From assembly GCF_044324875.1 (NCBI RefSeq), contig NZ_CP172185.1: a DNA stretch of 64,000 bases, one strand, 5' to 3'. Shown here in pieces: positions 6,470 to 59,076 of this stretch. A model generated the notes under the pieces. The model did not search any database. It saw nothing but the letters and a program-made list of their open reading frames with translations, and was not told where the DNA came from. A program made the position numbers and the translations under genes. The stretch's first letter is position 1; every line of letters starts with the position of its first letter. The DNA comes from Escherichia coli (lineage in GTDB: Bacteria; Pseudomonadota; Gammaproteobacteria; Enterobacterales; Enterobacteriaceae).

Positions 6470-8119
6470 GTGAACTGGCGCAGAATCGTCTGGCTATTGG
6501 CGTTGGTTACTCTGCCAACGCTTGCGGAGGAGACGCCGTTACAACTGGTGCTGCGCGGTGCGCAGCACGATCAACTGTATCAGCTGTCGTCATCAGGCGT
6601 GACCAAAGTCTCAGCATTACCTGACACTCTCACCACGCCGTTAGGGAGTTTGTGGAAACTGTATGTTTACGCCTGGCTGGAGGATACCCATCAACCGGAG
6701 CAGCCCTACCAGTGTCGTGGAAACTCCCCGGAAGAGGTTTATTGTTGTCAGGCTGGGGAGAGCATAACGCGCGATACCGCGCTGGTACGTTCCTGTGGGC
6801 TCTATTTTGCGCCGCAGCGGTTGCATATTAGCGCAGATGTGTGGGGGCAATACTGGCAACAGCGTCAGGCACCTGCGTGGTTAGCGTCTCTTACTACGCT
6901 GAAGCCAGAAACCTCGGTAACGGTTAAATCACTGCTTGATTCATTAGCGACGTTACCCGCGCAAAACAAAGCTCAGGAAGTCTTACTGGATGTGGTGCTG
7001 GACGAGGCGAAAATCGGTGTCGCATCCATGCTCGGTAGTCGGGTACGGGTGAAAACCTGGAGCTGGTTTGCCGATGATAAACAGGAAATCCGTCAGGGTG
7101 GTTTTGCCGGCTGGTTAACCGATGGTTCACCGCTGTGGGTTACTGGCAGTGGCACCAGCAAAACGGTACTAACCCGTTATGCGACGGTGCTTAATCGGGT
7201 TTTGCCAGTGCCGACGCAGGTTGCCAGTGGGCAATGTGTAGAGGTGGAGCTGTTTGCCCGCTATCCGCTGAAGAAAATCACAGCGGAAAAGAGTACGACG
7301 GCAGTAAAACCCGGCGTACTTAATGGGCGCTATCGTGTGACATTTGCCAATGGTAACCACATTACGTTTGTCAGCCACGGTGAGACGACCTTACTGAGCG
7401 AAAAGGGCAAACTGAAATTGCAGTCGCATCTTGATCGTGAAGAGTACGTTGCCAGAGTTCTGGATCGCGAGGCGAAAAGTACGCCCCCTGAGGCAGCGAA
7501 AGCCATGACCGTGGCGATTCGCACTTTTTTACAGCAAAACGCCAATCGGGAAGGCGATTGCCTGACCATCCCCGACAGTAGCGCCACGCAGCGTGTTTCT
7601 GCTTCGCCAGCGACCACGGGGGCGCGAACGATGACCGCCTGGACGCAGGATCTTATCTATGCGGGCGATCCGGTTCATTATCATGGCAGTCGCGCTACCG
7701 AAGGGACGCTTTCCTGGCGGCAAGCCACGGCCCAGGCGGGGCAGGGAGAGCGTTACGATCAGATACTCGCATTTGCTTATCCCGACAATAGCCTTAGCCG
7801 CTGGGGAGCGCCGCGCTCAACCTGCCAGTTATTACCCAAAGCGAAAGCCTGGCTGGCGAAAAAAATGCCGCAGTGGCGGCGTATATTACAAGGCGAGACG
7901 GGGTACAACGAACCAGACGTGTTTGCGGTCTGTCGTTTAGTCTCAGGTTTCCCCTATACCGATCGGCAGCAGAAACGGCTGTTTATTCGTAACTTCTTTA
8001 CGCTTCAGGATCGGCTGGATTTAACCCATGAGTATCTGCACCTGGCCTTTGATGGTTATCCCACCGGGCTTGATGAGAACTATATCGAAACGCTGACCCG
8101 ACAATTATTAATGGACTAA
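6470..8119 (+). CDS. yfaQ: YfaQ-like exported protein (DUF2300 family)
   Basis: 549-aa ORF with GTG start immediately after the yfaS stop (TAAGTG); N-terminal signal peptide MNWRRIVWLLALVTLPTLAEE. Confidence 0.85.
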   Translation: MNWRRIVWLLALVTLPTLAEETPLQLVLRGAQHDQLYQLSSSGVTKVSALPDTLTTPLGSLWKLYVYAWLEDTHQPEQPYQCRGNSPEEVYCCQAGESITRDTALVRSCGLYFAPQRLHISADVWGQYWQQRQAPAWLASLTTLKPETSVTVKSLLDSLATLPAQNKAQEVLLDVVLDEAKIGVASMLGSRVRVKTWSWFADDKQEIRQGGFAGWLTDGSPLWVTGSGTSKTVLTRYATVLNRVLPVPTQVASGQCVEVELFARYPLKKITAEKSTTAVKPGVLNGRYRVTFANGNHITFVSHGETTLLSEKGKLKLQSHLDREEYVARVLDREAKSTPPEAAKAMTVAIRTFLQQNANREGDCLTIPDSSATQRVSASPATTGARTMTAWTQDLIYAGDPVHYHGSRATEGTLSWRQATAQAGQGERYDQILAFAYPDNSLSRWGAPRSTCQLLPKAKAWLAKKMPQWRRILQGETGYNEPDVFAVCRLVSGFPYTDRQQKRLFIRNFFTLQDRLDLTHEYLHLAFDGYPTGLDENYIETLTRQLLMD

Positions 8120-8123
8120 TGCT

Positions 8124-8900
8124 ATGCGAAAGATTTTTCTTCCGTTGTTACTGGTGGCGCTTTCGCCTGTCGCTCACAGTGAAGGTGTGCAGGAAGTCGA
8201 GATTGATGCACCGCTCTCTGGCTGGCATCCGGCAGAGGGCGAAGATGCCAGTTTTTCACAATCGCTCAATTACCCGGCGTCGTCCGTCAACATGGCAGAT
8301 GATCAAAATATCTCAGCGCAGATCCGCGGCAAAATAAAGAATTATGCTGCGGCGGGTAAAGTTCAGCAGGGCCGGCTGGTGGTCAACGGTGCCAGTATGC
8401 CGCAGAGAATTGAATCCGATGGTTCATTTGCACGCCCTTATATTTTTACTGAAGGCAGCAACAGCGTGCAGGTCATCAGCCCAGATGGGCAAAGCCGACA
8501 AAAAATGCAGTTTTACTCAACGCCGGGCGCTGGAGTGATCCGCGCGCGTTTACGGCTGGTTCTCTCCTGGGATACGGACAATACCGACCTCGACCTTCAC
8601 GTTGTTACACCTGATGGCGAACACGCCTGGTACGGTAACACCGTGCTGAAAAACAGTGGTGCACTGGATATGGATGTCACGACGGGGTACGGCCCCGAGA
8701 TTTTCGCCATGCCAGCGCCGATTCACGGACGTTATCAGGTGTATATAAACTACTATGGCGGACGCAGCGAAACGGAATTAACCACCGCCCAACTGACGCT
8801 GATCACTGATGAAGGATCGGTCAATGAGAAACAGGAAACTTTCATTGTACCGATGCGTAATGCTGGCGAGTTGACGCTGGTGAAAAGTTTTGACTGGTGA
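8124..8900 (+). CDS. yfaP: YfaP-like exported protein (DUF2135 family)
   Basis: 258-aa ORF 4 bp after yfaQ stop; signal peptide MRKIFLPLLLVALSPVAHSEG. Confidence 0.85.
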   Translation: MRKIFLPLLLVALSPVAHSEGVQEVEIDAPLSGWHPAEGEDASFSQSLNYPASSVNMADDQNISAQIRGKIKNYAAAGKVQQGRLVVNGASMPQRIESDGSFARPYIFTEGSNSVQVISPDGQSRQKMQFYSTPGAGVIRARLRLVLSWDTDNTDLDLHVVTPDGEHAWYGNTVLKNSGALDMDVTTGYGPEIFAMPAPIHGRYQVYINYYGGRSETELTTAQLTLITDEGSVNEKQETFIVPMRNAGELTLVKSFDW

Positions 8901-32974: not shown

Positions 32975-35457
32975 AACTCAGTCGTCGTAGCTTTATGAAA
33001 GCTAACGCCGTTGCGGCCGCTGCGGCGGCTGCCGGTCTCAGCGTGCCGGGCGTTGCCCGCGCCGTTGTTGGTCAGCAGGAAGCCATTAAATGGGATAAAG
33101 CGCCGTGCCGTTTCTGCGGTACTGGTTGCGGCGTTCTGGTCGGAACGCAGCAGGGGCGTGTGGTGGCCTGTCAGGGCGACCCGGACGCACCGGTTAACCG
33201 TGGTCTGAACTGCATTAAGGGCTATTTCCTGCCCAAAATCATGTACGGTAAAGACCGTTTGACGCAGCCGCTTCTGCGTATGAAAAACGGTAAATATGAC
33301 AAAGAAGGCGAATTTACCCCAATCACCTGGGATCAAGCCTTCGATGTGATGGAAGAGAAATTCAAAACCGCCCTGAAAGAAAAAGGGCCGGAATCGATCG
33401 GTATGTTCGGTTCTGGTCAGTGGACTATCTGGGAAGGTTATGCCGCGTCCAAGCTGTTCAAAGCGGGCTTCCGTTCGAACAACATCGACCCGAACGCGCG
33501 TCACTGTATGGCGTCGGCGGTAGTTGGCTTTATGCGTACCTTTGGTATGGATGAGCCGATGGGCTGCTATGACGACATCGAGCAGGCTGACGCGTTTGTG
33601 CTGTGGGGCGCAAACATGGCGGAGATGCACCCGATCCTCTGGTCGCGCATCACTAACCGTCGTCTCTCTAACCAGAACGTTACCGTGGCGGTGCTTTCTA
33701 CCTACCAGCATCGTAGCTTCGAGCTGGCAGATAACGGCATCATCTTTACGCCGCAATCTGACCTGGTGATCCTGAACTATATCGCCAACTATATCATTCA
33801 AAACAATGCGATAAATCAGGACTTCTTCAGCAAACACGTTAACCTGCGCAAAGGGGCGACGGACATCGGCTACGGTTTACGTCCGACCCATCCGCTGGAA
33901 AAAGCAGCGAAGAATCCAGGTTCTGACGCCTCCGAACCGATGAGCTTTGAAGATTACAAAGCCTTCGTTGCCGAGTATACGCTGGAAAAAACCGCCGAAA
34001 TGACTGGCGTACCAAAAGATCAGCTGGAACAACTGGCGCAGCTGTATGCCGATCCGAACAAGAAAGTCATCTCCTACTGGACGATGGGCTTCAACCAGCA
34101 TACTCGTGGCGTGTGGGCCAACAACCTGGTCTACAACCTGCACCTGCTGACCGGCAAAATTTCCCAGCCGGGTTGCGGTCCGTTCTCCCTGACCGGGCAG
34201 CCTTCCGCGTGTGGTACTGCGCGTGAAGTGGGCACCTTTGCTCACCGTCTGCCTGCGGACATGGTGGTGACTAACGAGAAACATCGTGATATCTGCGAGA
34301 AGAAGTGGAATATCCCGAGCGGCACCATTCCGGCGAAAATCGGTCTGCACGCGGTAGCACAAGACCGTGCGCTGAAAGACGGCAAGCTGAATGTTTACTG
34401 GACCATGTGTACCAATAACATGCAGGCCGGGCCGAACATCAATGAAGAGCGTATGCCGGGCTGGCGCGATCCGCGCAACTTTATCATCGTTTCCGATCCG
34501 TATCCGACAGTCAGTGCGCTGGCCGCCGACTTGATCCTGCCGACCGCAATGTGGGTAGAGAAAGAGGGGGCTTACGGTAACGCCGAACGCCGTACTCAGT
34601 TCTGGCGTCAGCAGGTACAGGCACCGGGCGAAGCGAAATCGGATCTCTGGCAGTTAGTCCAGTTCTCCCGCCGCTTCAAAACTGAAGAAGTATGGCCGGA
34701 AGAGCTGCTGGCGAAGAAACCGGAACTGCGTGGCAAAACGCTGTACGAAGTTCTGTATGCCACCCCGGAAGTGAGCAAATTCCCGCTATCCGAACTGGCG
34801 GAAGATCAGCTGAACGATGAATCCCGCGAGCTGGGCTTCTATCTGCAAAAAGGGCTGTTCGAAGAGTACGCATGGTTTGGTCGTGGTCACGGTCACGATC
34901 TGGCACCGTTCGATGATTACCACAAAGCACGCGGTCTGCGCTGGCCGGTAGTGAACGGTAAAGAAACGCAGTGGCGTTACAGCGAAGGTAACGACCCATA
35001 CGTGAAAGCGGGCGAAGGCTACAAGTTCTACGGTAAACCGGATGGCAAAGCGGTGATCTTCGCGCTGCCGTTCGAACCGGCGGCGGAGGCACCGGATGAA
35101 GAGTACGACCTGTGGCTCTCTACCGGACGCGTCCTGGAGCACTGGCATACCGGCAGTATGACTCGCCGTGTACCGGAACTGCACCGTGCCTTCCCGGAAG
35201 CGGTCCTGTTTATTCACCCGTTGGATGCGAAAGCGCGCGATCTGCGCCGTGGCGACAAAGTGAAAGTGGTTTCTCGCCGTGGCGAAGTGATCTCGATTGT
35301 CGAAACGCGCGGTCGTAACCGTCCGCCGCAGGGCCTGGTGTACATGCCGTTCTTCGACGCCGCACAGCTGGTTAACAAACTGACGCTGGATGCGACCGAT
35401 CCGCTCTCGAAAGAGACGGACTTCAAGAAGTGCGCGGTCAAACTGGAGAAGGTGTAA
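32971..35457 (+). CDS. napA: Periplasmic nitrate reductase catalytic subunit NapA
   Basis: 828 aa; twin-arginine signal ([19 protein letters not shown]); molybdopterin oxidoreductase. Confidence 0.97.
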
Positions 35458-35463
35458 GCCATT

Positions 35464-36159
35464 ATGTCCCGGTCAGCGAAACCTCAAAATGGTCGCCGCC
35501 GCTTTCTGCGCGATGTCGTTCGCACAGCTGGCGGGCTGGCTGCCGTGGGTGTGGCGCTGGGGTTACAACAGCAAACCGCACGCGCATCTGGCGTGCGGTT
35601 GCGCCCGCCCGGAGCCATAAACGAGAACGCCTTTGCCAGTGCCTGTGTGCGTTGCGGTCAGTGTGTTCAGGCGTGCCCTTACGACACCTTAAAACTGGCG
35701 ACGCTGGCCTCTGGTCTGTCGGCGGGCACGCCATATTTTGTCGCACGGGATATTCCTTGCGAAATGTGTGAGGACATTCCGTGCGCCAAAGTGTGCCCGA
35801 GCGGTGCGCTGGATCGTGAGATCGAATCGATCGACGACGCGCGGATGGGGCTGGCGGTACTGGTGGACCAGGAAAACTGTCTCAACTTTCAGGGGCTGCG
35901 CTGCGATGTTTGTTATCGCGAATGCCCGAAAATTGATGAGGCAATCACCCTGGAACTGGAGCGCAACACGCGTACCGGTAAGCACGCCCGCTTTCTGCCG
36001 ACGGTTCACAGCGACGCCTGTACCGGTTGCGGTAAGTGCGAAAAAGTGTGCGTGCTGGAACAACCGGCAATCAAGGTGTTACCGCTGTCACTGGCGAAAG
36101 GGGAGTTAGGTCACCATTACCGCTTCGGCTGGCTGGAGGGGAACAATGGCAAATCGTAA
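35464..36159 (+). CDS. napG: Ferredoxin-type protein NapG
   Basis: 231 aa; Tat signal ([18 protein letters not shown]); four Cys clusters. Confidence 0.93.
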
Positions 36160-37009
36160 ACGTGACGCCGGGCGCGAGGCGCTGGAGAAAAAAGGCTGGT
36201 GGCGCAGTCACCGTTGGCTGGTGTTACGTCGCCTTTGTCAGTTCTTCGTGCTGGGGATGTTTTTGAGCGGTCCGTGGTTTGGTGTGTGGATCTTGCACGG
36301 CAACTACAGCAGTAGCCTGTTATTCGACACCGTTCCACTGACCGATCCGCTGATGACGCTGCAAAGCCTTGCCAGCGGTCATCTGCCTGCCACGGTAGCG
36401 CTGACTGGTGCGGTGATTATCACCGTGCTCTACGCCCTGGCAGGAAAGCGATTATTTTGCAGCTGGGTCTGCCCGCTGAACCCGATTACCGACTTAGCGA
36501 ACTGGTTACGCAGGCGCTTTGACCTCAATCAGTCTGCGACGATCCCTCGCCACATTCGCTACGTGCTGTTGGTGGTCATTCTGCTGGGATCGGCCTTAAC
36601 CGGCACACTCATCTGGGAATGGATCAACCCCGTTTCCCTGATGGGGCGCAGTCTGGTAATGGGATTCGGCAGCGGCGCGCTGCTTATTCTCGCGCTGTTT
36701 TTATTTGATCTACTGGTCGTTGAACACGGCTGGTGCGGGCACATTTGTCCGGTTGGCGCGCTGTATGGCGTGCTGGGTAGCAAAGGTGTCATTACCGTTG
36801 CGGCCACCGATCGGCAGAAATGTAACCGCTGTATGGATTGTTTTCATGTTTGCCCGGAACCGCATGTGCTACGTGCCCCGGTGCTGGATGAACAAAGCCC
36901 GGTGCAGGTCACCAGCCGCGATTGCATGACGTGCGGTCGCTGCGTGGATGTCTGTTCTGAGGATGTATTTACAATAACTACACGATGGAGTTCGGGAGCG
37001 AAATCATGA
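36146..37009 (+). CDS. napH: Membrane-bound ferredoxin-type protein NapH
   Basis: 287 aa; transmembrane helices plus C-terminal CxxCxxC clusters. Confidence 0.93.
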
Positions 37010-37455
37010 AAAGCCATGACCTGAAGAAAGCGCTGTGTCAATGGACGGCGATGCTGGCCCTGGTGGTGAGCGGCGCGGTTTGGGCGGCTAATGGCGTCGA
37101 TTTTAGCCAGTCGCCGGAAGTATCCGGGACGCAGGAAGGGGCCATTCGGATGCCAAAAGAGCAGGATCGGATGCCGCTGAACTATGTGAATCAGCCGCCA
37201 ATGATCCCGCATAGCGTTGAAGGTTATCAGGTAACGACCAATACCAACCGCTGCTTGCAGTGCCACGGTGTCGAAAGCTATCGCACCACTGGCGCGCCGC
37301 GCATCAGTCCTACTCACTTTATGGACAGCGACGGCAAAGTGGGCGCGGAAGTGGCTCCGCGTCGTTATTTCTGTCTGCAATGTCACGTACCGCAGGCCGA
37401 TACCGCGCCAATCGTGGGGAATACCTTTACCCCATCAAAAGGTTACGGGAAATAA
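37006..37455 (+). CDS. napB: Periplasmic nitrate reductase di-haem cytochrome c subunit NapB
   Basis: Start at MKSHDLKKA (ATGA overlap with napH stop); two CxxCH motifs (CLQCH x2); ORF-track start at 36985 rejected. Confidence 0.93.
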   Translation: MKSHDLKKALCQWTAMLALVVSGAVWAANGVDFSQSPEVSGTQEGAIRMPKEQDRMPLNYVNQPPMIPHSVEGYQVTTNTNRCLQCHGVESYRTTGAPRISPTHFMDSDGKVGAEVAPRRYFCLQCHVPQADTAPIVGNTFTPSKGYGK

Positions 37456-37464
37456 GAGGTTATT

Positions 37465-38067
37465 ATGGGAAATTCTGACCGTAAGCCTGGTCTGATTAAG
37501 CGCCTGTGGAAATGGTGGCGTACCCCCAGCCGTCTGGCGCTGGGGACGCTGCTGTTGATCGGCTTTGTTGGCGGCATCGTCTTCTGGGGCGGCTTTAACA
37601 CCGGGATGGAAAAAGCCAATACCGAAGAGTTCTGCATTAGCTGCCACGAAATGCGTAACACGGTGTATCAGGAATACATGGATTCCGTGCACTACAACAA
37701 CCGTAGCGGCGTTCGTGCGACCTGTCCGGATTGTCACGTTCCGCACGAGTTTGTGCCGAAGATGATACGCAAGCTCAAAGCAAGTAAAGAGCTGTATGGT
37801 AAAATTTTTGGCGTTATTGACACGCCGCAGAAATTTGAAGCTCATCGCCTGACGATGGCACAGAATGAGTGGCGGCGCATGAAGGACAATAACTCGCAGG
37901 AGTGCCGTAACTGTCACAACTTCGAGTATATGGATACAACCGCCCAGAAATCGGTTGCCGCGAAGATGCATGACCAGGCGGTGAAAGATGGGCAAACCTG
38001 TATTGATTGCCATAAAGGGATAGCGCACAAGCTGCCCGATATGCGCGAAGTCGAGCCAGGTTTTTAA
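37465..38067 (+). CDS. napC: Membrane-anchored tetra-haem cytochrome c NapC
   Basis: 200 aa; four CxxCH motifs (CISCH, CPDCH, CRNCH, CIDCH). Confidence 0.95.
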   Translation: MGNSDRKPGLIKRLWKWWRTPSRLALGTLLLIGFVGGIVFWGGFNTGMEKANTEEFCISCHEMRNTVYQEYMDSVHYNNRSGVRATCPDCHVPHEFVPKMIRKLKASKELYGKIFGVIDTPQKFEAHRLTMAQNEWRRMKDNNSQECRNCHNFEYMDTTAQKSVAAKMHDQAVKDGQTCIDCHKGIAHKLPDMREVEPGF

Positions 38068-38079
38068 CAGGGTTATTGC

Positions 38080-38703
38080 GTGGGTATGCTTGAAGCCAGA
38101 GAGTTACTTTGCGAGCGGGATGAACGAACCTTATTTAGTGGCTTGTCATTTACGCTGAACGCAGGAGAGTGGGTACAAATCACCGGTAGCAACGGCGCGG
38201 GGAAGACAACGCTTCTCCGTTTGCTGACGGGGTTGTCTCGCCCTGATGCGGGTGACGTTCTCTGGCAAGGGCAGCCCTTGCATCAGGTACGCGACAGCTA
38301 CCATCAAAACCTGTTATGGATAGGCCATCAGCCGGGGATCAAAACCCGGCTGACGGCGTTAGAAAATCTGCACTTTTATCATCGCGATGGCGATACCGCA
38401 CAATGTCTGGAAGCCCTGGCGCAGGCTGGGCTTGCCGGATTCGAAGATATTCCGGTAAATCAACTTTCTGCCGGGCAACAACGCCGCGTCGCTTTAGCGC
38501 GTCTGTGGCTGACCCGTGCCACGTTATGGATCCTCGACGAGCCTTTTACCGCGATTGACGTTAACGGCGTCGATCGTCTGACCCAGCGTATGGCGCAGCA
38601 TACGGAGCAGGGGGGGATTGTGATTCTGACTACCCACCAGCCGCTCAACGTTGCTGAAAGTAAAATTCGCCGCATTTCACTGACGCAAACGAGGGCCGCA
38701 TGA
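38080..38703 (+). CDS. ccmA: Cytochrome c maturation ABC ATPase CcmA
   Basis: 207 aa; Walker [10 protein letters not shown]. Confidence 0.93.
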
Positions 38704-39362
38704 TGTTCTGGCGCATTTTCCGTCTTGAGCTGCGCGTAGCGTTTCGCCACAGCGCCGAAATCGCCAACCCGCTGTGGTTCTTCCTGATTGTCATTACCCT
38801 TTTTCCGCTCAGTATCGGTCCGGAGCCGCAACTGCTGGCGCGTATTGCACCGGGCGTTATCTGGGTTGCTGCGCTGCTTTCATCCTTGCTGGCACTGGAG
38901 CGTCTGTTCCGTGACGATTTGCAGGACGGCAGTCTTGAACAATTGATGTTGTTGCCGTTACCCTTGCCCGCCGTTGTGCTGGCGAAGGTGATGGCGCACT
39001 GGATGGTAACCGGTCTGCCGTTACTCGTCCTTTCGCCACTGGTAGCAATGCTACTGGGAATGGATGTTTATGGCTGGCAAGTGATGGCGCTGACGCTGCT
39101 GCTGGGAACGCCTACGCTTGGCTTTCTCGGTGCACCGGGCGTGGCGCTGACAGTGGGACTTAAGCGCGGTGGTGTGCTGCTCAGCATACTGGTGTTACCG
39201 CTGACTATCCCATTACTCATCTTTGCCACCGCCGCGATGGACGCGGCTTCCATGCATTTGCCCGTTGACGGGTATCTGGCAATTTTAGGCGCGTTGCTGG
39301 CAGGCACCGCGACATTAAGTCCTTTTGCGACGGCGGCAGCGTTACGAATCAGCATTCAATAA
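38700..39362 (+). CDS. ccmB: Haem exporter permease CcmB
   Basis: 220 aa polytopic membrane protein; 4-bp overlap with ccmA. Confidence 0.93.
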
Positions 39363-39403
39363 CGCTGGATTACTGATTTTTGTTCGAGTCTGGTATCGAA
39401 ACT

Positions 39404-40141
39404 ATGTGGAAAACACTGCATCAACTGGCGATCCCACCACGGCTGTATCAAATCTGTGGCTGGTTTATACCGTGGCTGGCAATTGCCAGTGTGGTCGTGC
39501 TTACCGTTGGCTGGATCTGGGGATTCGGCTTTGCTCCGGCTGATTATCAGCAGGGAAATAGCTACCGCATTATCTACCTGCATGTGCCTGCGGCGATCTG
39601 GTCGATGGGCATTTATGCATCAATGGCGGTGGCGGCGTTTATTGGCCTTGTCTGGCAGATGAAAATGGCCAACCTGGCGGTGGCGGCGATGGCCCCCATT
39701 GGTGCCGTGTTTACCTTTATTGCCCTGGTTACCGGCTCTGCATGGGGAAAACCGATGTGGGGCACTTGGTGGGTATGGGACGCACGCCTGACTTCTGAAC
39801 TGGTGCTGCTGTTTCTGTATGTTGGTGTAATTGCCCTGTGGCACGCCTTCGACGACCGCCGTCTGGCGGGCCGTGCGGCAGGTATCCTGGTGCTGATTGG
39901 CGTGGTGAATCTGCCGATTATTCATTACTCCGTGGAGTGGTGGAACACCCTGCATCAGGGATCAACGCGAATGCAGCAAAGTATCGATCCGGCGATGCGT
40001 TCGCCGCTGCGCTGGTCGATTTTTGGCTTCTTGCTGCTGTCTGCCACGCTGACGCTGATGCGGATGCGTAATTTAATTTTGCTGATGGAAAAACGCCGTC
40101 CGTGGGTGAGTGAACTGATACTGAAAAGAGGCCGTAAATGA
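39404..40141 (+). CDS. ccmC: Haem export protein CcmC
   Basis: Start at MWKTLHQLAIPP (245 aa); WWD motif WGTWWVWDARLTSE; ORF-track start at 39380 rejected. Confidence 0.93.
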   Translation: MWKTLHQLAIPPRLYQICGWFIPWLAIASVVVLTVGWIWGFGFAPADYQQGNSYRIIYLHVPAAIWSMGIYASMAVAAFIGLVWQMKMANLAVAAMAPIGAVFTFIALVTGSAWGKPMWGTWWVWDARLTSELVLLFLYVGVIALWHAFDDRRLAGRAAGILVLIGVVNLPIIHYSVEWWNTLHQGSTRMQQSIDPAMRSPLRWSIFGFLLLSATLTLMRMRNLILLMEKRRPWVSELILKRGRK

Positions 40142-40347
40142 CCCCTGCATTTGCTTCCTGGAATGAATTTTTCGCAATGGGCGGTTACGCCTTTTTTGTC
40201 TGGCTGGCGGTGGTGATGACCGTTATTCCGCTGGTGGTTTTGGTCGTGCACTCGGTGATGCAGCATCGCGCAATTCTGCGTGGCGTGGCGCAACAGCGGG
40301 CGCGTGAGGCGCGTTTACGTGCTGCGCAACAGCAGGAGGCTGCATGA
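40138..40347 (+). CDS. ccmD: Cytochrome c maturation protein CcmD
   Basis: 69 aa single-TM protein; overlaps ccmC and ccmE ends. Confidence 0.9.
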
Positions 40348-40823
40348 ATATTCGCCGTAAAAACCGCTTGTGGATTGCCTGTGCCGTGTTGGCAGGGCTG
40401 GCGCTGACTATCGGTCTGGTGCTGTATGCGCTGCGCTCGAATATCGATCTCTTTTATACGCCGGGGGAAATTCTCTACGGCAAGCGTGAAACTCAGCAGA
40501 TGCCGGAAGTCGGTCAGCGTCTGCGCGTTGGCGGGATGGTGATGCCGGGTAGTGTGCAGCGCGATCCCAATTCGCTAAAAGTAACTTTCACCATTTACGA
40601 CGCTGAAGGTTCAGTAGATGTCTCTTACGAAGGCATTTTGCCGGATCTGTTCCGTGAAGGGCAGGGCGTTGTGGTGCAGGGCGAACTGGAAAAAGGCAAT
40701 CATATCCTCGCGAAAGAAGTGCTGGCGAAACACGACGAAAACTACACGCCGCCAGAAGTTGAGAAAGCGATGGAAGCCAATCACCGTCGCCCGGCGAGTG
40801 TTTATAAGGACCCAGCATCATGA
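40344..40823 (+). CDS. ccmE: Haem chaperone CcmE
   Basis: 159 aa; N-terminal membrane anchor; conserved C-terminal region ([13 protein letters not shown]). Confidence 0.93.
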
Positions 40824-42763
40824 TGCCGGAAATTGGTAACGGGCTGCTGTGCCTGGCGCTGGGAATTGCGCTGCTGCTGTCCGTGTATCCGCTATGGGGC
40901 GTAGCGCGCGGAGATGCGCGCATGATGGCGTCTTCCCGCTTGTTTGCCTGGCTGCTGTTTATGTCTGTGGCTGGCGCATTTCTGGTACTGGTCAATGCCT
41001 TCGTGGTCAACGACTTTACCGTCACCTATGTTGCCAGCAACTCCAATACCCAGCTTCCGGTGTGGTATCGCGTGGCGGCTACCTGGGGCGCACATGAAGG
41101 TTCGCTTCTGCTGTGGGTGCTGCTGATGAGCGGCTGGACCTTTGCGGTGGCGATTTTTAGTCAGCGTATTCCGCTGGATATTGTGGCCCGCGTACTGGCG
41201 ATAATGGGGATGGTCAGCGTCGGCTTTTTGCTGTTCATTCTCTTTACCTCTAACCCGTTCTCACGCACGTTGCCGAACTTCCCGATTGAAGGTCGCGATC
41301 TTAACCCGCTGTTACAGGATCCGGGGCTGATCTTCCATCCGCCTCTGCTTTATATGGGGTACGTCGGCTTCTCGGTGGCGTTTGCTTTTGCCATTGCTTC
41401 TTTGTTGAGCGGGCGTCTGGACAGCACTTATGCGCGTTTTACTCGTCCGTGGACACTGGCAGCGTGGATCTTCCTGACGCTCGGCATCGTGCTCGGTTCC
41501 GCATGGGCCTATTACGAACTCGGCTGGGGCGGCTGGTGGTTCTGGGATCCGGTAGAAAACGCCTCGTTTATGCCGTGGCTGGTGGGGACTGCGCTGATGC
41601 ACTCACTGGCGGTCACTGAACAACGCGCCAGCTTCAAAGCGTGGACATTACTGCTGGCAATCAGTGCCTTCTCGTTGTGTCTGTTGGGGACTTTCCTCGT
41701 GCGTTCCGGCGTGCTGGTATCGGTACACGCGTTTGCCTCTGATCCGGCGCGCGGTATGTTTATCCTCGCCTTTATGGTGCTGGTGATTGGTGGTTCGCTG
41801 CTGCTGTTTGCCGCGCGTGGACACAAAGTTCGCTCACGCGTAAACAATGCGCTGTGGTCGCGGGAATCTCTGCTGTTAGCGAACAACGTTTTGCTGGTCG
41901 CCGCGATGCTGGTGGTATTACTGGGGACGCTGCTGCCGCTGGTGCACAAGCAACTGGGACTGGGCAGTATTTCGATTGGCGAACCGTTCTTCAACACCAT
42001 GTTTACCTGGCTGATGGTGCCGTTTGCGCTGCTGCTTGGTGTCGGTCCTCTGGTGCGCTGGGGGCGCGATCGCCCACGTAAAATCCGCAATTTATTGATT
42101 ATCGCCTTCATCTCAACGCTGGTGCTGTCGCTGCTGCTGCCGTGGCTGTTCGAAAGCAAAGTTGTGGCGATGACGGTGCTCGGCCTGGCAATGGCCTGCT
42201 GGATTGCGGTGCTGGCAATTGCGGAAGCTGCGCTGCGTATTTCACTTGGCACGAAAACCACCTTCAGTTATTGGGGAATGGTGGCGGCTCACCTGGGGCT
42301 GGCAGTGACAATTGTTGGTATTGCCTTTAGCCAGAACTATAGCGTTGAGCGTGATGTGCGCATGAAGTCCGGCGATAGTGTCGATATTCATGAATATCGC
42401 TTCACCTTCCGTGATGTCAAAGAGGTGACTGGCCCGAACTGGCGCGGCGGTGTGGCGACTATCGGCGTAACGCGCGATGGCAAGCCGGAAACGGTGCTGT
42501 ATGCGGAAAAACGTTATTACAACACTGCCGGGTCGATGATGACCGAAGCGGCAATTGACGGCGGCATCACGCGTGACCTGTACGCCGCGCTCGGTGAAGA
42601 GCTGGAAAACGGCGCGTGGGCCGTGCGTCTTTACTACAAACCGTTTGTTCGCTGGATTTGGGCGGGCGGGCTGATGATGGCATTGGGCGGGCTGCTGTGC
42701 CTGTTTGATCCTCGCTATCGTAAGCGCGTGAACCCGCAGAAAACTGCGCCGGAGGCTGTATGA
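40820..42763 (+). CDS. ccmF: Cytochrome c-type biogenesis protein CcmF
   Basis: 647 aa; WWD-type motif [14 protein letters not shown]. Confidence 0.95.
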
Positions 42764-43317
42764 AGCGCAAAGTATTGTTAATTCCTTTGATTATTTTCCT
42801 GGCGATTGCCGCGGCGCTGCTGTGGCAGCTGGCGCGTAATGCCGAAGGGGATGATCCGACCAATCTGGAATCGGCGCTCATTGGCAAGCCCGTGCCGAAG
42901 TTTCGCCTCGAATCACTGGACAATCCGGGGCAGTTTTATCAGGCGGATGTTCTGACTCAGGGCAAACCGGTGCTGCTTAACGTCTGGGCGACCTGGTGTC
43001 CGACCTGCCGTGCGGAACATCAATATCTGAATCAGCTTTCTGCGCAGGGCATCCGCGTGGTCGGCATGAACTATAAAGACGATCGCCAGAAGGCAATCAG
43101 CTGGCTGAAAGAGCTGGGCAATCCTTACGCACTAAGCCTGTTTGATGGCGACGGCATGTTAGGACTGGATCTCGGTGTCTATGGCGCGCCAGAAACGTTC
43201 CTCATCGACGGCAACGGCATCATTCGCTATCGCCATGCGGGCGATCTCAATCCTCGCGTCTGGGAAGAAGAGATCAAGCCGCTGTGGGAGAAATACAGTA
43301 AGGAGGCCGCACAATGA
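42760..43317 (+). CDS. ccmG: Thiol:disulfide interchange protein CcmG (DsbE)
   Basis: 185 aa; thioredoxin motif WCPTC. Confidence 0.95.
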   Translation: MKRKVLLIPLIIFLAIAAALLWQLARNAEGDDPTNLESALIGKPVPKFRLESLDNPGQFYQADVLTQGKPVLLNVWATWCPTCRAEHQYLNQLSAQGIRVVGMNYKDDRQKAISWLKELGNPYALSLFDGDGMLGLDLGVYGAPETFLIDGNGIIRYRHAGDLNPRVWEEEIKPLWEKYSKEAAQ

Positions 43318-54588: not shown

Positions 54589-55779
54589 GTGACCACCCGA
54601 CAGCATTCGTCGTTTGCTATTGTTTTTATCCTTGGCCTGCTGGCCATGTTGATGCCGCTGTCGATTGATATGTATCTGCCCGCGCTACCGGTAATTTCAG
54701 CGCAGTTTGGCGTACCGGCGGGCAGTACGCAGATGACCCTCAGTACTTATATTCTGGGCTTTGCGTTGGGGCAGTTAATCTACGGGCCGATGGCAGACAG
54801 TTTCGGGCGTAAGCCGGTGGTTCTTGGCGGTACGCTGGTGTTTGCCGCCGCCGCGGTGGCGTGTGCGCTGGCACAAACCATCGATCAGCTGATTGTGATG
54901 CGTTTCTTCCACGGTCTGGCTGCGGCTGCGGCCAGCGTGGTTATCAACGCTTTGATGCGTGATATCTACCCGAAAGAAGAGTTCTCGCGGATGATGTCGT
55001 TTGTCATGCTGGTGACGACCATTGCACCGCTGATGGCACCGATAGTTGGCGGCTGGGTGCTGGTGTGGCTGAGCTGGCATTACATCTTCTGGATCCTCGC
55101 TGTGGCGGCGATTCTGGCTTCGGCAATGATCTTCTTTCTGATCAAAGAAACCTTACCACCGGAGCGTCGCCAGCCTTTTCACATTCGTACTACTATTGGT
55201 AACTTTGCGGCGCTGTTCCGTCATAAGCGTGTCCTGAGTTATATGCTTGCCAGTGGTTTCAGCTTTGCCGGGATGTTCTCGTTCTTAAGCGCCGGACCGT
55301 TTGTCTACATTGAAATTAACCACGTCGCGCCGGAAAACTTTGGTTATTACTTTGCGCTAAACATTGTTTTCCTGTTCGTGATGACCATCTTTAACAGCCG
55401 CTTCGTCCGCCGAATTGGCGCGTTAAATATGTTCCGCTCGGGGTTGTGGATACAGTTTATTATGGCGGCGTGGATGGTCATCAGTGCGCTGCTGGGGCTG
55501 GGATTCTGGTCGCTGGTGGTTGGCGTTGCGGCGTTTGTGGGCTGCGTGTCGATGGTGTCATCCAATGCGATGGCGGTCATTCTGGATGAGTTTCCCCATA
55601 TGGCGGGAACGGCATCTTCGCTGGCAGGAACCTTCCGTTTCGGCATAGGGGCAATTGTTGGCGCATTGCTTTCTCTTGCGACCTTTAACTCTGCATGGCC
55701 GATGATTTGGTCAATTGCATTCTGCGCAACCAGCTCCATTCTCTTCTGTCTGTACGCCAGTCGGCCGAAAAAACGGTGA
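54589..55779 (+). CDS. bcr: MFS multidrug efflux transporter Bcr
   Basis: 396 aa, GTG start, 12-TM MFS architecture. Confidence 0.9.
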
Positions 55780-55793
55780 TCTATTGCACAACG

Positions 55794-55823
55794 AGGAAGC
55801 TAAAAGGCTTCCTTTGTTGATGC
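55794..55823 (+). terminator. Possible weak bcr terminator
   Basis: 7-bp stem aggaagc/gcttcct with T-rich but interrupted tail. Confidence 0.4.
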
Positions 55824-56111
55824 ATGTCAACCATAAATCCATCATTCCCCCGATATATGTTTATTTTATGTAAAATCAATTTATGTAAAAAGTCACATCA
55901 TTGTAGTTAAAAAGGTTGAGTTAGATCGCAGAAACGGGTACATATAGCCCCGCAAACGTGACCACGCCCGCAGATATTATTTAAATCAGAGCCATAGAGG
56001 CCACGCTGGCGAGGCATCAATCTTTACGATCTGTATAAAGACGGATTGTTGATGATGTGTTAAAATTGATGTAAACAAATTGTGAAGTAAATGTGCTTCC
56101 GGGGAAAATAA

Positions 56112-56456
56112 GTGACTTCATTACAACTCTCAATCGTCCATCGACTGCCGCAGAACTATCGCTGGTCTGCTGGTTTCGCAGGTTCGAAGGTTGAACCGAT
56201 TCCGCAAAATGGACCGTGCGGTGACAACAGCCTGGTGGCGCTTAAATTGCTTAGCCCGGATGGTGATAATGCATGGTCGGTGATGTACAAACTAAGCCAG
56301 GCGTTAAGCGACATCGAAGTTCCATGCTCGGTGCTGGAGTGTGAAGGTGAGCCGTGCCTGTTTGTAAATCGCCAGGACGAGTTTGCAGCAACATGCCGAT
56401 TGAAAAATTTTGGTGTGGCAATTGCCGAACCCTTTTCAAACTACAATCCTTTTTAA
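56112..56456 (+). CDS. yejG: Uncharacterised protein YejG
   Basis: 114-aa ORF in the conserved position between bcr and yejF. Confidence 0.8.
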
Positions 56457-56459
56457 GCG

Positions 56460-58049
56460 TCAGCTCAACGCCAGTAGCTGACGCGTATACTCCTGCTGCG
56501 GTGCGGCAAACACGCGCGCGCACGGTCCTTGTTCCACTACTTCCCCTTGTCGCAGTACGATAACCTGATGACATAACGCGCGGACAACGTGCAAATCGTG
56601 ACTGATAAACAAATAGGCCAATTGATGCTTCTGTTGCAATGATTTCAATAGCGTCAATATTTGCGCCTGTACCGTTTTGTCGAGCGATGATGTTGGTTCA
56701 TCAAGAATGATCAGCGAGGGCTTAAGAATTAACGCCCTGGCAATCGCAATACGTTGCCGCTGACCACCAGAGAACTCCGCCGGATAACGGTGGCGTGTTT
56801 CAGGATCTAATCCCACTTCATGCATCACGGCTATCACTTGTTGTTCGCGTTGTGCGGCAGAAAGCGTCGGCTGGTGAACCCGTAAGCCTTCCTCAATAAT
56901 TTGCAAAACGTTGAGTCGTGGGTTGAGCGAGGAGTTTGGATCCTGAAATACCACCTGAATGCGATGACGAATAGGTAACAGCTGGCGACGATTTAAATTT
57001 TGCAGTGGCTGACCGTCAAAGATAATGCTGCCCTGAGAGTTAATCAGTCGCAGCAGCGCCAGTCCCGTCGTGCTTTTCCCGGAACCGGACTCGCCCACTA
57101 AACCCAGTGTTTCACCCGCTCGTAGCGTAAAACTGATGTTTTTCACCACCACATTATGATCCACAATGCGCTTCAAAATCCCTTTGCGAATGGGGAAGGC
57201 AACCTGAAGCTGTTCAACATTCAGCAACGTTGAGGCAGGTTCTGGCAATGGCACCGGGTCGCCTGACGGTTCACTGTTGAGTAGCTTTTGTGTGTAAGGA
57301 TGAGTGGGTGAGGCAAATAGCGTAGCGGCGTTATTTTGCTCGACACAGCGACCGTTTTGCATTACCGCCACGCGGTGGGCCAGTTTTCTGACAATGCTGA
57401 GGTTATGAGTAATAAACAGCATGCCCATATTCAGCTCGCCTTGCAGTTCGCGCAACAGCTGTAAAATCTGCGCCTGGACAGAGACGTCCAGTGCGGTGGT
57501 TGGTTCATCGGCAATTAATAATTCCGGTCGCGTTAACAGCGCCATCGCAATCATCACCCGCTGGCGTTCGCCGCCGGAGAGCTGATGCGGATAATCTGTC
57601 AGCCGTTTTGCCGCCTGGCGGATACCGACGCGATCAAGGCAGTTAAGAATTTCGCCACGAGCCGCTTCCCGACGCATCCCGCGGTGGAGTGAAAGCACTT
57701 CATAAAGCTGTTTTTCCAGGGTATGCAATGGATTTAATGACACCATCGGCTCCTGAAAAATCATGGCGATCTTATTACCGCGTACACCGCGCAACGTTTG
57801 ATCGCTGGCATGAAGCAGCGATTCGCCATGAAAACGAATATCGCCGGAGAGATATTCAACCGGCGGGGAAGGGAGCAGGCGTAAAATTGACAGCGCGGTA
57901 ACGCTTTTGCCTGAACCTGACTCACCCACCAGCGCCAGCGTTTCGCCAGCCTCAATCTGAAGTGAAACATCATTGACTACTGTACGTACGGTTTGCTGAT
58001 GGCGAAAACCCACCGACAAATTTTCAATCGCTAACAGAGTTTGCGTCAT
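56460..58049 (-). CDS. yejF: ABC transporter ATPase with duplicated ATP-binding domains, YejF
   Basis: Start at [15 protein letters not shown] (529 aa); two Walker A motifs (GESGSGKS x2) and two signature motifs (LSGGERQR / FSGGQRQR). Confidence 0.93.
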
Positions 58050-58050
58050 G

Positions 58051-59076
58051 CTACACCGCCTTATTAGGATCAAATGCGTCGCGGACGGCTTCACCAATAA
58101 AGATCAGCAAAGACAACAATATCGCCACCGACAAGAAGGCGGTGATCCCAAGCCACGGGGCCTGAAGGTTATTTTTCCCTTGTAACAGCAGTTCGCCGAG
58201 TGACGGTGAACCGAGCGGCAGACCGAAGCCGAGGAAATCGAGTGAGGTCAGGGTGGTGATCGAACTACATAAAATAAACGGTAAAAAGGTGAGGGTAGCG
58301 ACCATGGCATTTGGCAACATATGACGCAGGATGATACTGCGATCGCTGACGCCAAGCGCCTGCGCCGCGCGGATGTAGTCGAAATTACGGGTACGTAAAA
58401 ACTCCGCCCGCACCACGCCGACCAGACTCATCCAGCCAAACAAGACGGTAATTGCCAGCAGCCACCAGAAGTTAGGCTGTACGACGCTGGAAAGTAAAAT
58501 AATCAAAAACAGCGTCGGCATCCCCGACCATACTTCAATAAAACGTTGCCCCCAGAGATCGACTTTACCGCCGTAATAGCCTTGTAGCGCCCCCGCCAGC
58601 ACGCCCATCACGCTGGAACAGAGAGTCAGCATCAGGCCAAACAGAACCGAGATCCGCGTGCCATAGAGAATACGTGCCAGCACATCGCCGCCGTTGGCAT
58701 CCGTTCCCAGCCAGTTTTGCCGGGAGGGTGGGGAGGGGAAGGGCTTGTCGGTAGCAAAGTTGATACTGGTAGCACCAAAGCGAATCGGTGCCCACAGTAC
58801 CCAGCCGTTATGTTCCAGCCGTTGTTTCAGCCACGGGTCCTGATAATCAGCCTGACTTGCCAGCGGACCGCCAAAATCGCTTTCGCTGTAGTTTTTCAAC
58901 AACGGGAAATACCAACTGCCGTCATAACGCACCAGCAACGGTTTATCGTTGGCGATAAGTTCAGAACACAAACTCAAACCAAACAAGACGAGGAAAATCC
59001 ATAACGACCAGTAGCCGCGACGGTTATGACGAAAACGCGCCCAACGGGCCTGATTGACGGGGCTGAGTCGCGACAT
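58051..59076 (-). CDS. yejE: ABC transporter permease YejE
   Basis: 341 aa; Opp/Dpp-type permease. Confidence 0.92.
   Translation of the reverse strand: MSRLSPVNQARWARFRHNRRGYWSLWIFLVLFGLSLCSELIANDKPLLVRYDGSWYFPLLKNYSESDFGGPLASQADYQDPWLKQRLEHNGWVLWAPIRFGATSINFATDKPFPSPPSRQNWLGTDANGGDVLARILYGTRISVLFGLMLTLCSSVMGVLAGALQGYYGGKVDLWGQRFIEVWSGMPTLFLIILLSSVVQPNFWWLLAITVLFGWMSLVGVVRAEFLRTRNFDYIRAAQALGVSDRSIILRHMLPNAMVATLTFLPFILCSSITTLTSLDFLGFGLPLGSPSLGELLLQGKNNLQAPWLGITAFLSVAILLSLLIFIGEAVRDAFDPNKAV

Follow-up and report, generated by a model that had tools for sequence, protein, structure and literature searches.

How do two convergent genes end their transcripts when only three base pairs separate their stop codons? 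The question is raised by yejG and yejF in a 64,000-nt stretch of Escherichia coli DNA (contig NZ_CP172185.1; called the window here), where the plus strand, read across the junction, runs ...cct ttt TAA gcg TCA gct... (Table 1). The earlier note had placed the two stop codons 3 bp apart from the letters alone, and both the sequence and the RefSeq annotation agree with it. The same gene ends are found in two independent RefSeq records, a 100%-identical E. coli chromosome and a K-12-like chromosome, which give 345 nt for yejG, 1590 nt for yejF and 3 nt between them. Over the tested stretch, the window DNA is 100% identical to that of strain 135 and about 98% identical to that of K-12-like strains. 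The mechanical list of open reading frames carries yejF as far as a TTG at 58097, the annotated start being 58049. The YejG protein is a member of Pfam family PF13989 (E 6e-51), and yejF encodes a double ABC ATPase, the ATP-binding subunit of the YejABEF importer of peptides and microcin C. The two genes are adjacent, on opposite strands and tail to tail, which is the geometry of a convergent excludon; the remaining convergent pairs in the window are separated by 34 to 363 bp.

Table 1. Features in and around the yejG/yejF junction, in window coordinates.
Feature	Position	Strand	Details
yejG coding sequence	56112-56456	+	GTG start, TAA stop at 56454-56456; 114 aa; RefSeq, Pfam
yejF coding sequence	56460-58049	-	TGA stop at 56460-56462 (tca on the + strand); RefSeq, Pfam
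Spacer gcg between the two stop codons	56457-56459		3 bp
Junction stem-loop	56457-56484	both	9-bp G+C-rich stem, 10-nt loop
Stem-loop left arm, GCGTCAGCT	56457-56465		Spacer, yejF stop codon and last Ser codon
Stem-loop right arm, AGCTGACGC	56476-56484		yejF Thr (third base)-Arg-Gln-Leu codons
Putative yejG 3′ UTR	56457-56664	+	Antisense to the last ~205 nt of yejF; published Term-seq end
C-rich, G-poor stretch of yejG-sense RNA	57020-57180	+	C/G 1.3-2.1, around the Rho-score peak
C-rich, G-poor stretch of yejF-sense RNA	56220-56420	-	C/G 1.2-1.7, past the yejF stop, antisense to yejG
Weak hairpin	56621-56658	+	-10.6 kcal/mol; ends 6 nt before the 3′ end at 56664
bcr terminator hairpin (55794-55813) and published 3′ end (55782)	55782-55813	-	K-12 2278566/7 +, mapped by sequence
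yejG sigma-70 start sites, approximate	55952-56072	+	40 and 160 nt 5′ of the start codon; predicted placement

The spacing was compared across 82 loci, namely those of 80 species-level genomes encoding YejG together with the two E. coli records. All 80 genomes belong to the Enterobacteriaceae and include Escherichia, Salmonella, Citrobacter, Klebsiella, Raoultella, Kluyvera, Kosakonia, Enterobacter, Lelliottia, Trabulsiella and Superficieibacter. In 81 of the 82 loci yejF follows yejG directly in the convergent orientation; the Intestinirhabdus locus is without yejF downstream of yejG. The gap measures exactly 3 bp in 75 loci, drawn from many genera of the family, the other lengths being 1, 1, 2, 2, 5, 6 and 23 bp. 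Within the species, 5383 of 5425 complete E. coli genomes carry an identical copy of the 65 nt that have the junction at their centre, whereas most genomes show only 95–99% identity over the surrounding 701 nt. By these comparisons of sequence, the two gene ends do not lie side by side merely by chance. A tiny target for indels, together with selection on both protein ends, could account for part of the fixed gap, and the conservation of the stem-loop lying across the junction is therefore the stronger evidence. No description of a family-wide fixed 3-bp spacing was found in the literature searched.

A gap of this size had been held by the earlier note to leave no room for intergenic terminators, a view upheld by a consensus scan for hairpin-plus-T-run terminators, which returned no site on either strand between 55700 and 57200; a canonical terminator at or near the junction is thereby ruled out. 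The junction is occupied instead by a stem-loop in which six of the nine pairs are G-C, as in the G+C-rich stem-loop of an intrinsic terminator. Like intrinsic terminators, one-way or bidirectional (the bcr terminator, at a distance of 650 bp, is an example), the element is a G+C-rich hairpin at a gene end, but it differs from them in having no U tract on either strand, and for that reason it is neither an intrinsic nor a bidirectional intrinsic terminator. After the stem-loop the plus strand continues with GUAUACUCC and the minus strand with UUAAAAAGG, with a T run on neither; the T run that does occur (cctttt) is upstream of the hairpin on the plus strand and is thus misplaced for termination in either direction. 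The predicted fold of the plus-strand RNA has an energy of -16.6 kcal/mol (z -2.45, with 3 of 200 shuffles as stable), and that of the minus-strand RNA -16.5 kcal/mol (z -0.73). A known RNA family was ruled out, an Rfam search of 54000-59000 at E <= 1 giving no match at the junction. With up to 2 mismatches allowed, a search of the 64-kb window found no second copy of the stem-loop, and the junction sequence occurs at one place per genome in complete E. coli genomes, so that a REP or other repeated palindromic element was ruled out as well. The hairpin is retained in nearly all of the 82 loci. When 61 distinct sequences are aligned without gaps, 87% of the cells are paired, versus 23–55% when the partner column is slid by 1–3 positions; the shuffle control does not amount to a probability.

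With no terminator at the junction, the actual ends of the transcripts were sought in published data. The earlier note had proposed Term-seq across the junction as a check, and the data for E. coli K-12 MG1655 (Adams 2021) hold a 3′ end on the yejG strand at 2277685, classified as "antisense yejF" and present in LB at OD 0.4, in LB at OD 2.0 and in M63 (212916, 168450 and 68386 reads across the three conditions). Sequence mapping places this minus-strand K-12 position at window position 56664, 208 nt past the yejG stop. The curated lists of the same study contain no entry labelled yejG, nor do they place an end at the base of the junction hairpin, where one would be expected at about 56485-56491, minor sub-threshold ends being possible; the hairpin is not the dominant 3′ end in K-12 under the Term-seq conditions. 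The TERMITe supplements are without an entry for yejG or yejF. The weak hairpin just before the +208 end was ruled out as a conserved terminator, no consensus structure being found for it across genera (alifold -1.0).

Term-seq records 3′ ends only, and the +208 end could belong to an RNA initiated inside the region; a scan of the sequence found no promoter-like site there as a source of such an RNA. The RNA ending at +208 would instead begin at the yejG promoters. Two sigma-70 start sites of yejG have been validated by primer extension (dPeak paper), and a constitutive RpoD promoter has been published for the interval from bcr to yejG. The placement of the start sites in Table 1 assumes that the yejG of that paper lies at 2275915-2276259, the coordinates of the K-12-like record.

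Further downstream on the yejG strand, DirectRNA-seq with and without bicyclomycin (BCM) defined a Rho termination region inside yejF and antisense to it; the Rho score of 3.76 (p 2e-10) peaks at 2277275 (Adams 2021). This corresponds to window position ~57074, about 618 nt past the yejG stop. Coverage upstream and downstream of the region was 128 and 27 without BCM, and 343 and 272 with it (Adams 2021). The C/G ratio of the plus strand is only mildly raised directly after the junction (1.3–1.4 at +4 to +120) and reaches 1.75–2.1 only at +600 to +680.

The pair has also been listed by ExcludonFinder (NAR 2025, PMC12288877) among the 165 convergent excludons of MG1655, which are defined as pairs that overlap in 50% or more of the 58 RNA-seq sets. 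The 3′ end lying within yejF and this listing together bear out the overlap of the two 3′ ends that had been deduced from the spacing, and the overlap of the yejG and yejF transcripts is thus already in the literature. Both transcripts ending inside their own coding regions, the outcome named beforehand as contrary to overlap, is not what Term-seq shows, given the end at +208, the Rho region and the excludon listing. As in other convergent excludons, adjacent convergent genes have overlapping transcripts according to published data; the distance of 3 nt differs from the mean of 95 nt for E. coli excludons (PMC12288877). The assignment of yejG/yejF to the class is by geometry and the published overlap; transcriptional interference and antisense pairing, both raised by the earlier note, and mutual exclusion with RNase III cleavage of the duplex would be possible consequences for this pair.

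We lean towards an account in which Rho-dependent termination is displaced into the neighbouring gene, because the junction has no space for a terminator, and in which the hairpin serves as an exonuclease barrier or a pause site. RNA polymerase coming from the sigma-70 promoters of yejG would pass the stop codon and the conserved stem-loop lacking a U tract, and it would then run on, antisense, through the end of yejF. Rho would terminate the untranslated RNA several hundred nt inside yejF, and the steady-state RNA would end 208 nt past the yejG stop. The +208 end would belong to the yejG mRNA. In general, the ends of Rho-dependent transcripts have been found directly behind stable stem-loops that have no U tract and are closely followed by rut sites (Dar and Sorek, NAR 2018, PMC6061677), and in the light of that finding the +208 end would arise by trimming after Rho termination. 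The junction resembles this class in form, having a stable stem-loop without U's, sequence that is mildly C-rich just downstream and published Rho-dependent read-through on the strand, but the steady-state end is not at the stem-loop: the dominant end is 180 nt beyond it, beside the weaker, non-conserved hairpin. The yejG 3′ UTR would be a cis-antisense RNA to the yejABEF mRNA, which would make the pair a convergent excludon. The junction hairpin would most likely block 3′-to-5′ exonucleases, pause the polymerase, or both, keeping the yejG coding region protected regardless of events downstream; the yejF stop would be protected likewise wherever the minus-strand hairpin is intact. Since the hairpin is not the dominant end in K-12, it would act at most as a second line of protection or as a pause site.

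The variants of the stem indicate which of the two RNAs the hairpin may serve. When a transition hits a Watson–Crick pair, one strand retains a G.U wobble while the other is left with an A.C mismatch. The most frequent variant, Arg CGT to CGC, is found in 24 of the 61 sequences and produces a U.G pair in the yejG-sense RNA and a C.A mismatch in the middle of the helix in the yejF-sense RNA. Five C-to-T changes in the spacer act in the same way, with a wobble on the yejG-sense and a mismatch on the yejF-sense strand, and only a few loop-proximal variants are opposite, being wobbles on the minus strand alone (4 + 4 cells at two loop-proximal pairs). The 28-nt hairpin is more stable by >1 kcal/mol on the plus strand in 28 species and on the minus strand in 7, the mean energies being -13.6 and -12.0 kcal/mol, respectively; a paired Wilcoxon comparison of the two folds gives 4e-6, uncorrected for phylogeny. 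Most of the variants keep a G.U wobble in the yejG-sense RNA, which is moderate evidence that selection acts mainly on the hairpin in the yejG transcript.

The same observations weigh on the converse possibility, that the stem-loop serves the yejABEF mRNA. Rho would then end the read-through of the operon in the C-rich antisense of yejG, and trimming by exonucleases back to the hairpin would leave its 3′ arm, composed of the yejF stop and the spacer, as the protected 3′ end of the operon; the hairpin may also serve both transcripts. The loop-proximal wobbles point in this direction, as does the E. coli minus-strand hairpin, which is equally perfect at -16.5 kcal/mol, but its z of only -0.73 does not, nor do the C.A mismatch that Arg CGC imposes on the minus strand in 24 of 61 sequences, the same effect of the spacer changes in 5, and a minus-strand fold that is the less stable of the two in 28 species and the more stable in 7. 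The downstream C/G bias is stronger on the minus strand (1.2–1.7 over about 200 nt), which fits a protective stem-loop followed by a rut site (Dar and Sorek, PMC6061677), and this stretch is a candidate Rho loading region for yejABEF read-through, as judged from base composition. The curated Term-seq lists are nevertheless without a yejF 3′ end at the hairpin. On the yejF strand a single mapped end occurs nearby; it is at 55782, 678 nt beyond the yejF stop, and could be either the end of yejABEF read-through or that of an unrelated antisense RNA. Service to the yejABEF mRNA is thus an alternative to be taken seriously, even if an unlikely one.

A different role is suggested by the collision elements, non-intrinsic hairpins at the boundaries of convergent genes (Ju 2019; Wang, Watters, Ju, Liu, bioRxiv 2022). 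As a bidirectional terminator of this type, the stem-loop would pause polymerases arriving from either side, so that both transcripts end at the boundary, with head-on and trailing collisions acting when both genes are active. A hairpin lying exactly between convergent genes and unlike an intrinsic terminator is the very description of the class, and its exact placement is conserved. The class is also described, however, as Rho-independent and as having sharp 3′ ends at the element, whereas at the yejG/yejF junction the published end on the yejG strand is 208 nt farther on, away from the element, and read-through is sensitive to bicyclomycin; judged from published data, the junction does not show Rho independence. 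It differs, too, in that the element is embedded in one of the genes, in its coding sequence and stop codon, and the strand asymmetry of the variants would be unexpected for an element working on both strands. We consider a collision-type terminator improbable here.

Could the stem-loop be without function, a chance complementarity frozen by coding constraint and a tiny mutational target? Of its 28 nt, 22 are yejF coding sequence or stop codon, and part of the conservation of the stem is indeed coding constraint from the C-terminus of YejF and its stop codon; CGY and CAG are, moreover, preferred codons anyway. The covariation counts come from related species and overstate the number of independent events, the compensatory changes tracing to few of them. 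The stem is nonetheless conserved where the protein does not require it. In the flanking 60 codons of both genes, the top-base frequency at third positions has a median of 0.60–0.68 and a 90th percentile of 0.90–0.93; the stem sites are at or above that percentile, and the third positions of the loop are free to vary. The synonymous sites of the stem are near-fixed, with Gln as CAG in 58 of 61 sequences, Ser as AGC in 52 of 54 and never as TCN, and Arg as CGT or CGC only. The yejF stop is TGA in 58 of 61, while the yejG stop, which adjoins the stem, is TGA in 46 and TAA in 15. Two of the non-coding spacer bases, which pair with the CG of the yejF Arg codon, are conserved at ~92–93% (base 2 is C in 56/61 and base 3 is G in 57/61). 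The remaining one, the first, forms the outermost pair with the synonymous third base of the yejF Thr codon and covaries with it through three Watson–Crick types (G-C in 21 of the 61 sequences, C-G in 15 and A-U in 6, besides U.G in 2 and 17 unpaired). In Kluyvera the outer pair is lost and two inner pairs are gained, and in species with an altered gap a strong hairpin still folds there. The conservation of the non-coding spacer and the covariation make a functionless stem-loop decidedly improbable, and the stem-loop has probably been selected as an RNA structure, as far as the pattern of substitutions allows it to be read. A description of a conserved covarying hairpin on the yejG/yejF junction was not found in the literature searched. 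Stop-codon context was rejected as the cause of the conservation of the spacer, since a C after UGA generally makes for weak termination.

It may be asked whether the YejG protein itself has a part in the arrangement. YejG has reportedly been compared, in the paper describing its structure, with domain III of EF-G. The structure is deposited as "Uncharacterized protein YejG" (PDB 6bi6), and a 2026 screen, in which overexpression of yejG gave a 3-fold higher tobramycin MIC, labels the protein in a table as containing an RNA recognition motif domain. The stem-loop might on these grounds be imagined as a dedicated cis-regulatory RNA element coupling yejG to the YejABEF importer, a speculation that we regard as very improbable. 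In one variant the stem-loop may be a putative binding site of YejG itself; in another it may set how far yejG transcription reaches into yejF, tuning the uptake of peptides or microcin. If such coupling were true, the synteny (81/82) and the fixed 3-bp spacing would reflect a functional unit and not inertia. That the inverted repeat, with its 9-bp arms, 10-bp spacer and conserved place, is the DNA site of a dimeric DNA-binding protein is extremely improbable and was rejected, since G.U-type transitions and compensatory swaps keep the RNA pairing and not the base identity of the half-sites, the position at the 3′ ends of both genes is far from promoters, and the window holds no second copy.

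The arrangement is ordinary in kind. It is a clean and extreme case of a common situation, in which convergent genes lack a terminator, transcription runs in antisense and Rho cleans up, and alone it adds little, because the pair is already catalogued. The new detail is a small one, a conserved, covarying hairpin to which yejF contributes its final codons and its stop codon; the hairpin and the fixed spacing seem to be undescribed, but both are of a familiar kind. The hairpin would illustrate selection for RNA structure on synonymous sites and on a 3-nt spacer, and it offers a convenient natural test case for boundary hairpins without a U tract, whether as exonuclease barrier, pause or collision site. 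For work on either gene, the consequence is that deleting or tagging yejG, or the 3′ end of yejF, will disturb the transcript of the other gene, and the shared junction affects how the knockout and overexpression phenotypes of both genes, for example in antibiotic susceptibility screens, are to be interpreted.

The junction hairpin, a conserved 9-bp stem-loop where the convergent yejG (+) and yejF (−) genes meet, takes different forms among the genera of the Enterobacteriaceae. In the seven Kluyvera loci compared (L029, L030, L034, L035, L038, L041 and L043), in which it lies at about locus positions 2846-2875 (676-705 in L035), the outermost pair, formed by the first spacer base and the third base of a yejF threonine codon, is a C-C mismatch. 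The stem is lengthened by two added inner pairs (gctca...tgagc) and the fold energy is still about -19 kcal/mol, and this gain of inner pairs looks like compensation by another route. A second type of variant is found in Klebsiella and Raoultella loci whose arginine codon in the right arm is CGC (L064, L069, L075 and others, at about locus positions 2856-2870), where a short competing hairpin, GCCAG-NAG-CTGGC, arises from the loop region within the junction element. Because of this competing hairpin, the structure at the junction may, in these genera, have been remodelled instead of simply weakened. Intestinirhabdus alba (L036, positions 2501-2900) is the only fetched genome without yejF after yejG; there, the sequence 3' of the yejG stop codon is unrelated and the junction hairpin is missing.

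The annotated start of yejG is a GTG codon at window position 56112. In many database clusters, other gene callers have given YejG an extended N-terminus and a length of 120-154 residues, and the sources therefore disagree on where the gene starts.

Features of the window outside the yejG/yejF junction
Feature	Window position	Other coordinates	Description
rcsB/rcsC	~8030-8230	K-12 2316833 (−)	convergent pair; Term-seq 3' end classified as antisense to rcsB
narP/ccmH	~33134-33169	K-12 2291359 (+)	convergent pair; Term-seq 3' end classified as antisense to ccmH
yejO	~34136-36726		autotransporter gene, frameshifted pseudogene (annotation of identical strain)
Integrated island	~37090-48138	NZ_CP080260.1 3774837-3785885	adjoins tRNA-Pro, downstream of yejM (annotation)
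bcr terminator and opposite-strand 3' end	55782-55813		intrinsic terminator; hairpin GGAAGC-TAAAAG-GCTTCC, then TTTGTTG

The island beside tRNA-Pro, which is not known from the K-12 gene order, is annotated in NZ_CP080260.1, the chromosome of an identical strain, with an integrase, an Icd-like protein, a PerC regulator and a ProQ/FinO protein, together with a RepA-family helicase, an SSB, a major capsid protein and a head decoration protein. The island has the appearance of a small cryptic prophage or of a phage satellite.

On the strand opposite to bcr, a published K-12 3' end is located 12 nt beyond the terminator hairpin in all three Term-seq conditions (Adams 2021). The bcr terminator seems to be active in both directions, and the RNA ending there could be a read-through transcript of the yejABEF operon spanning all of yejG. 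Since two further convergent pairs, rcsB/rcsC and narP/ccmH, have 3' ends classified as antisense, transcript overlap is common at the convergent junctions of this region.
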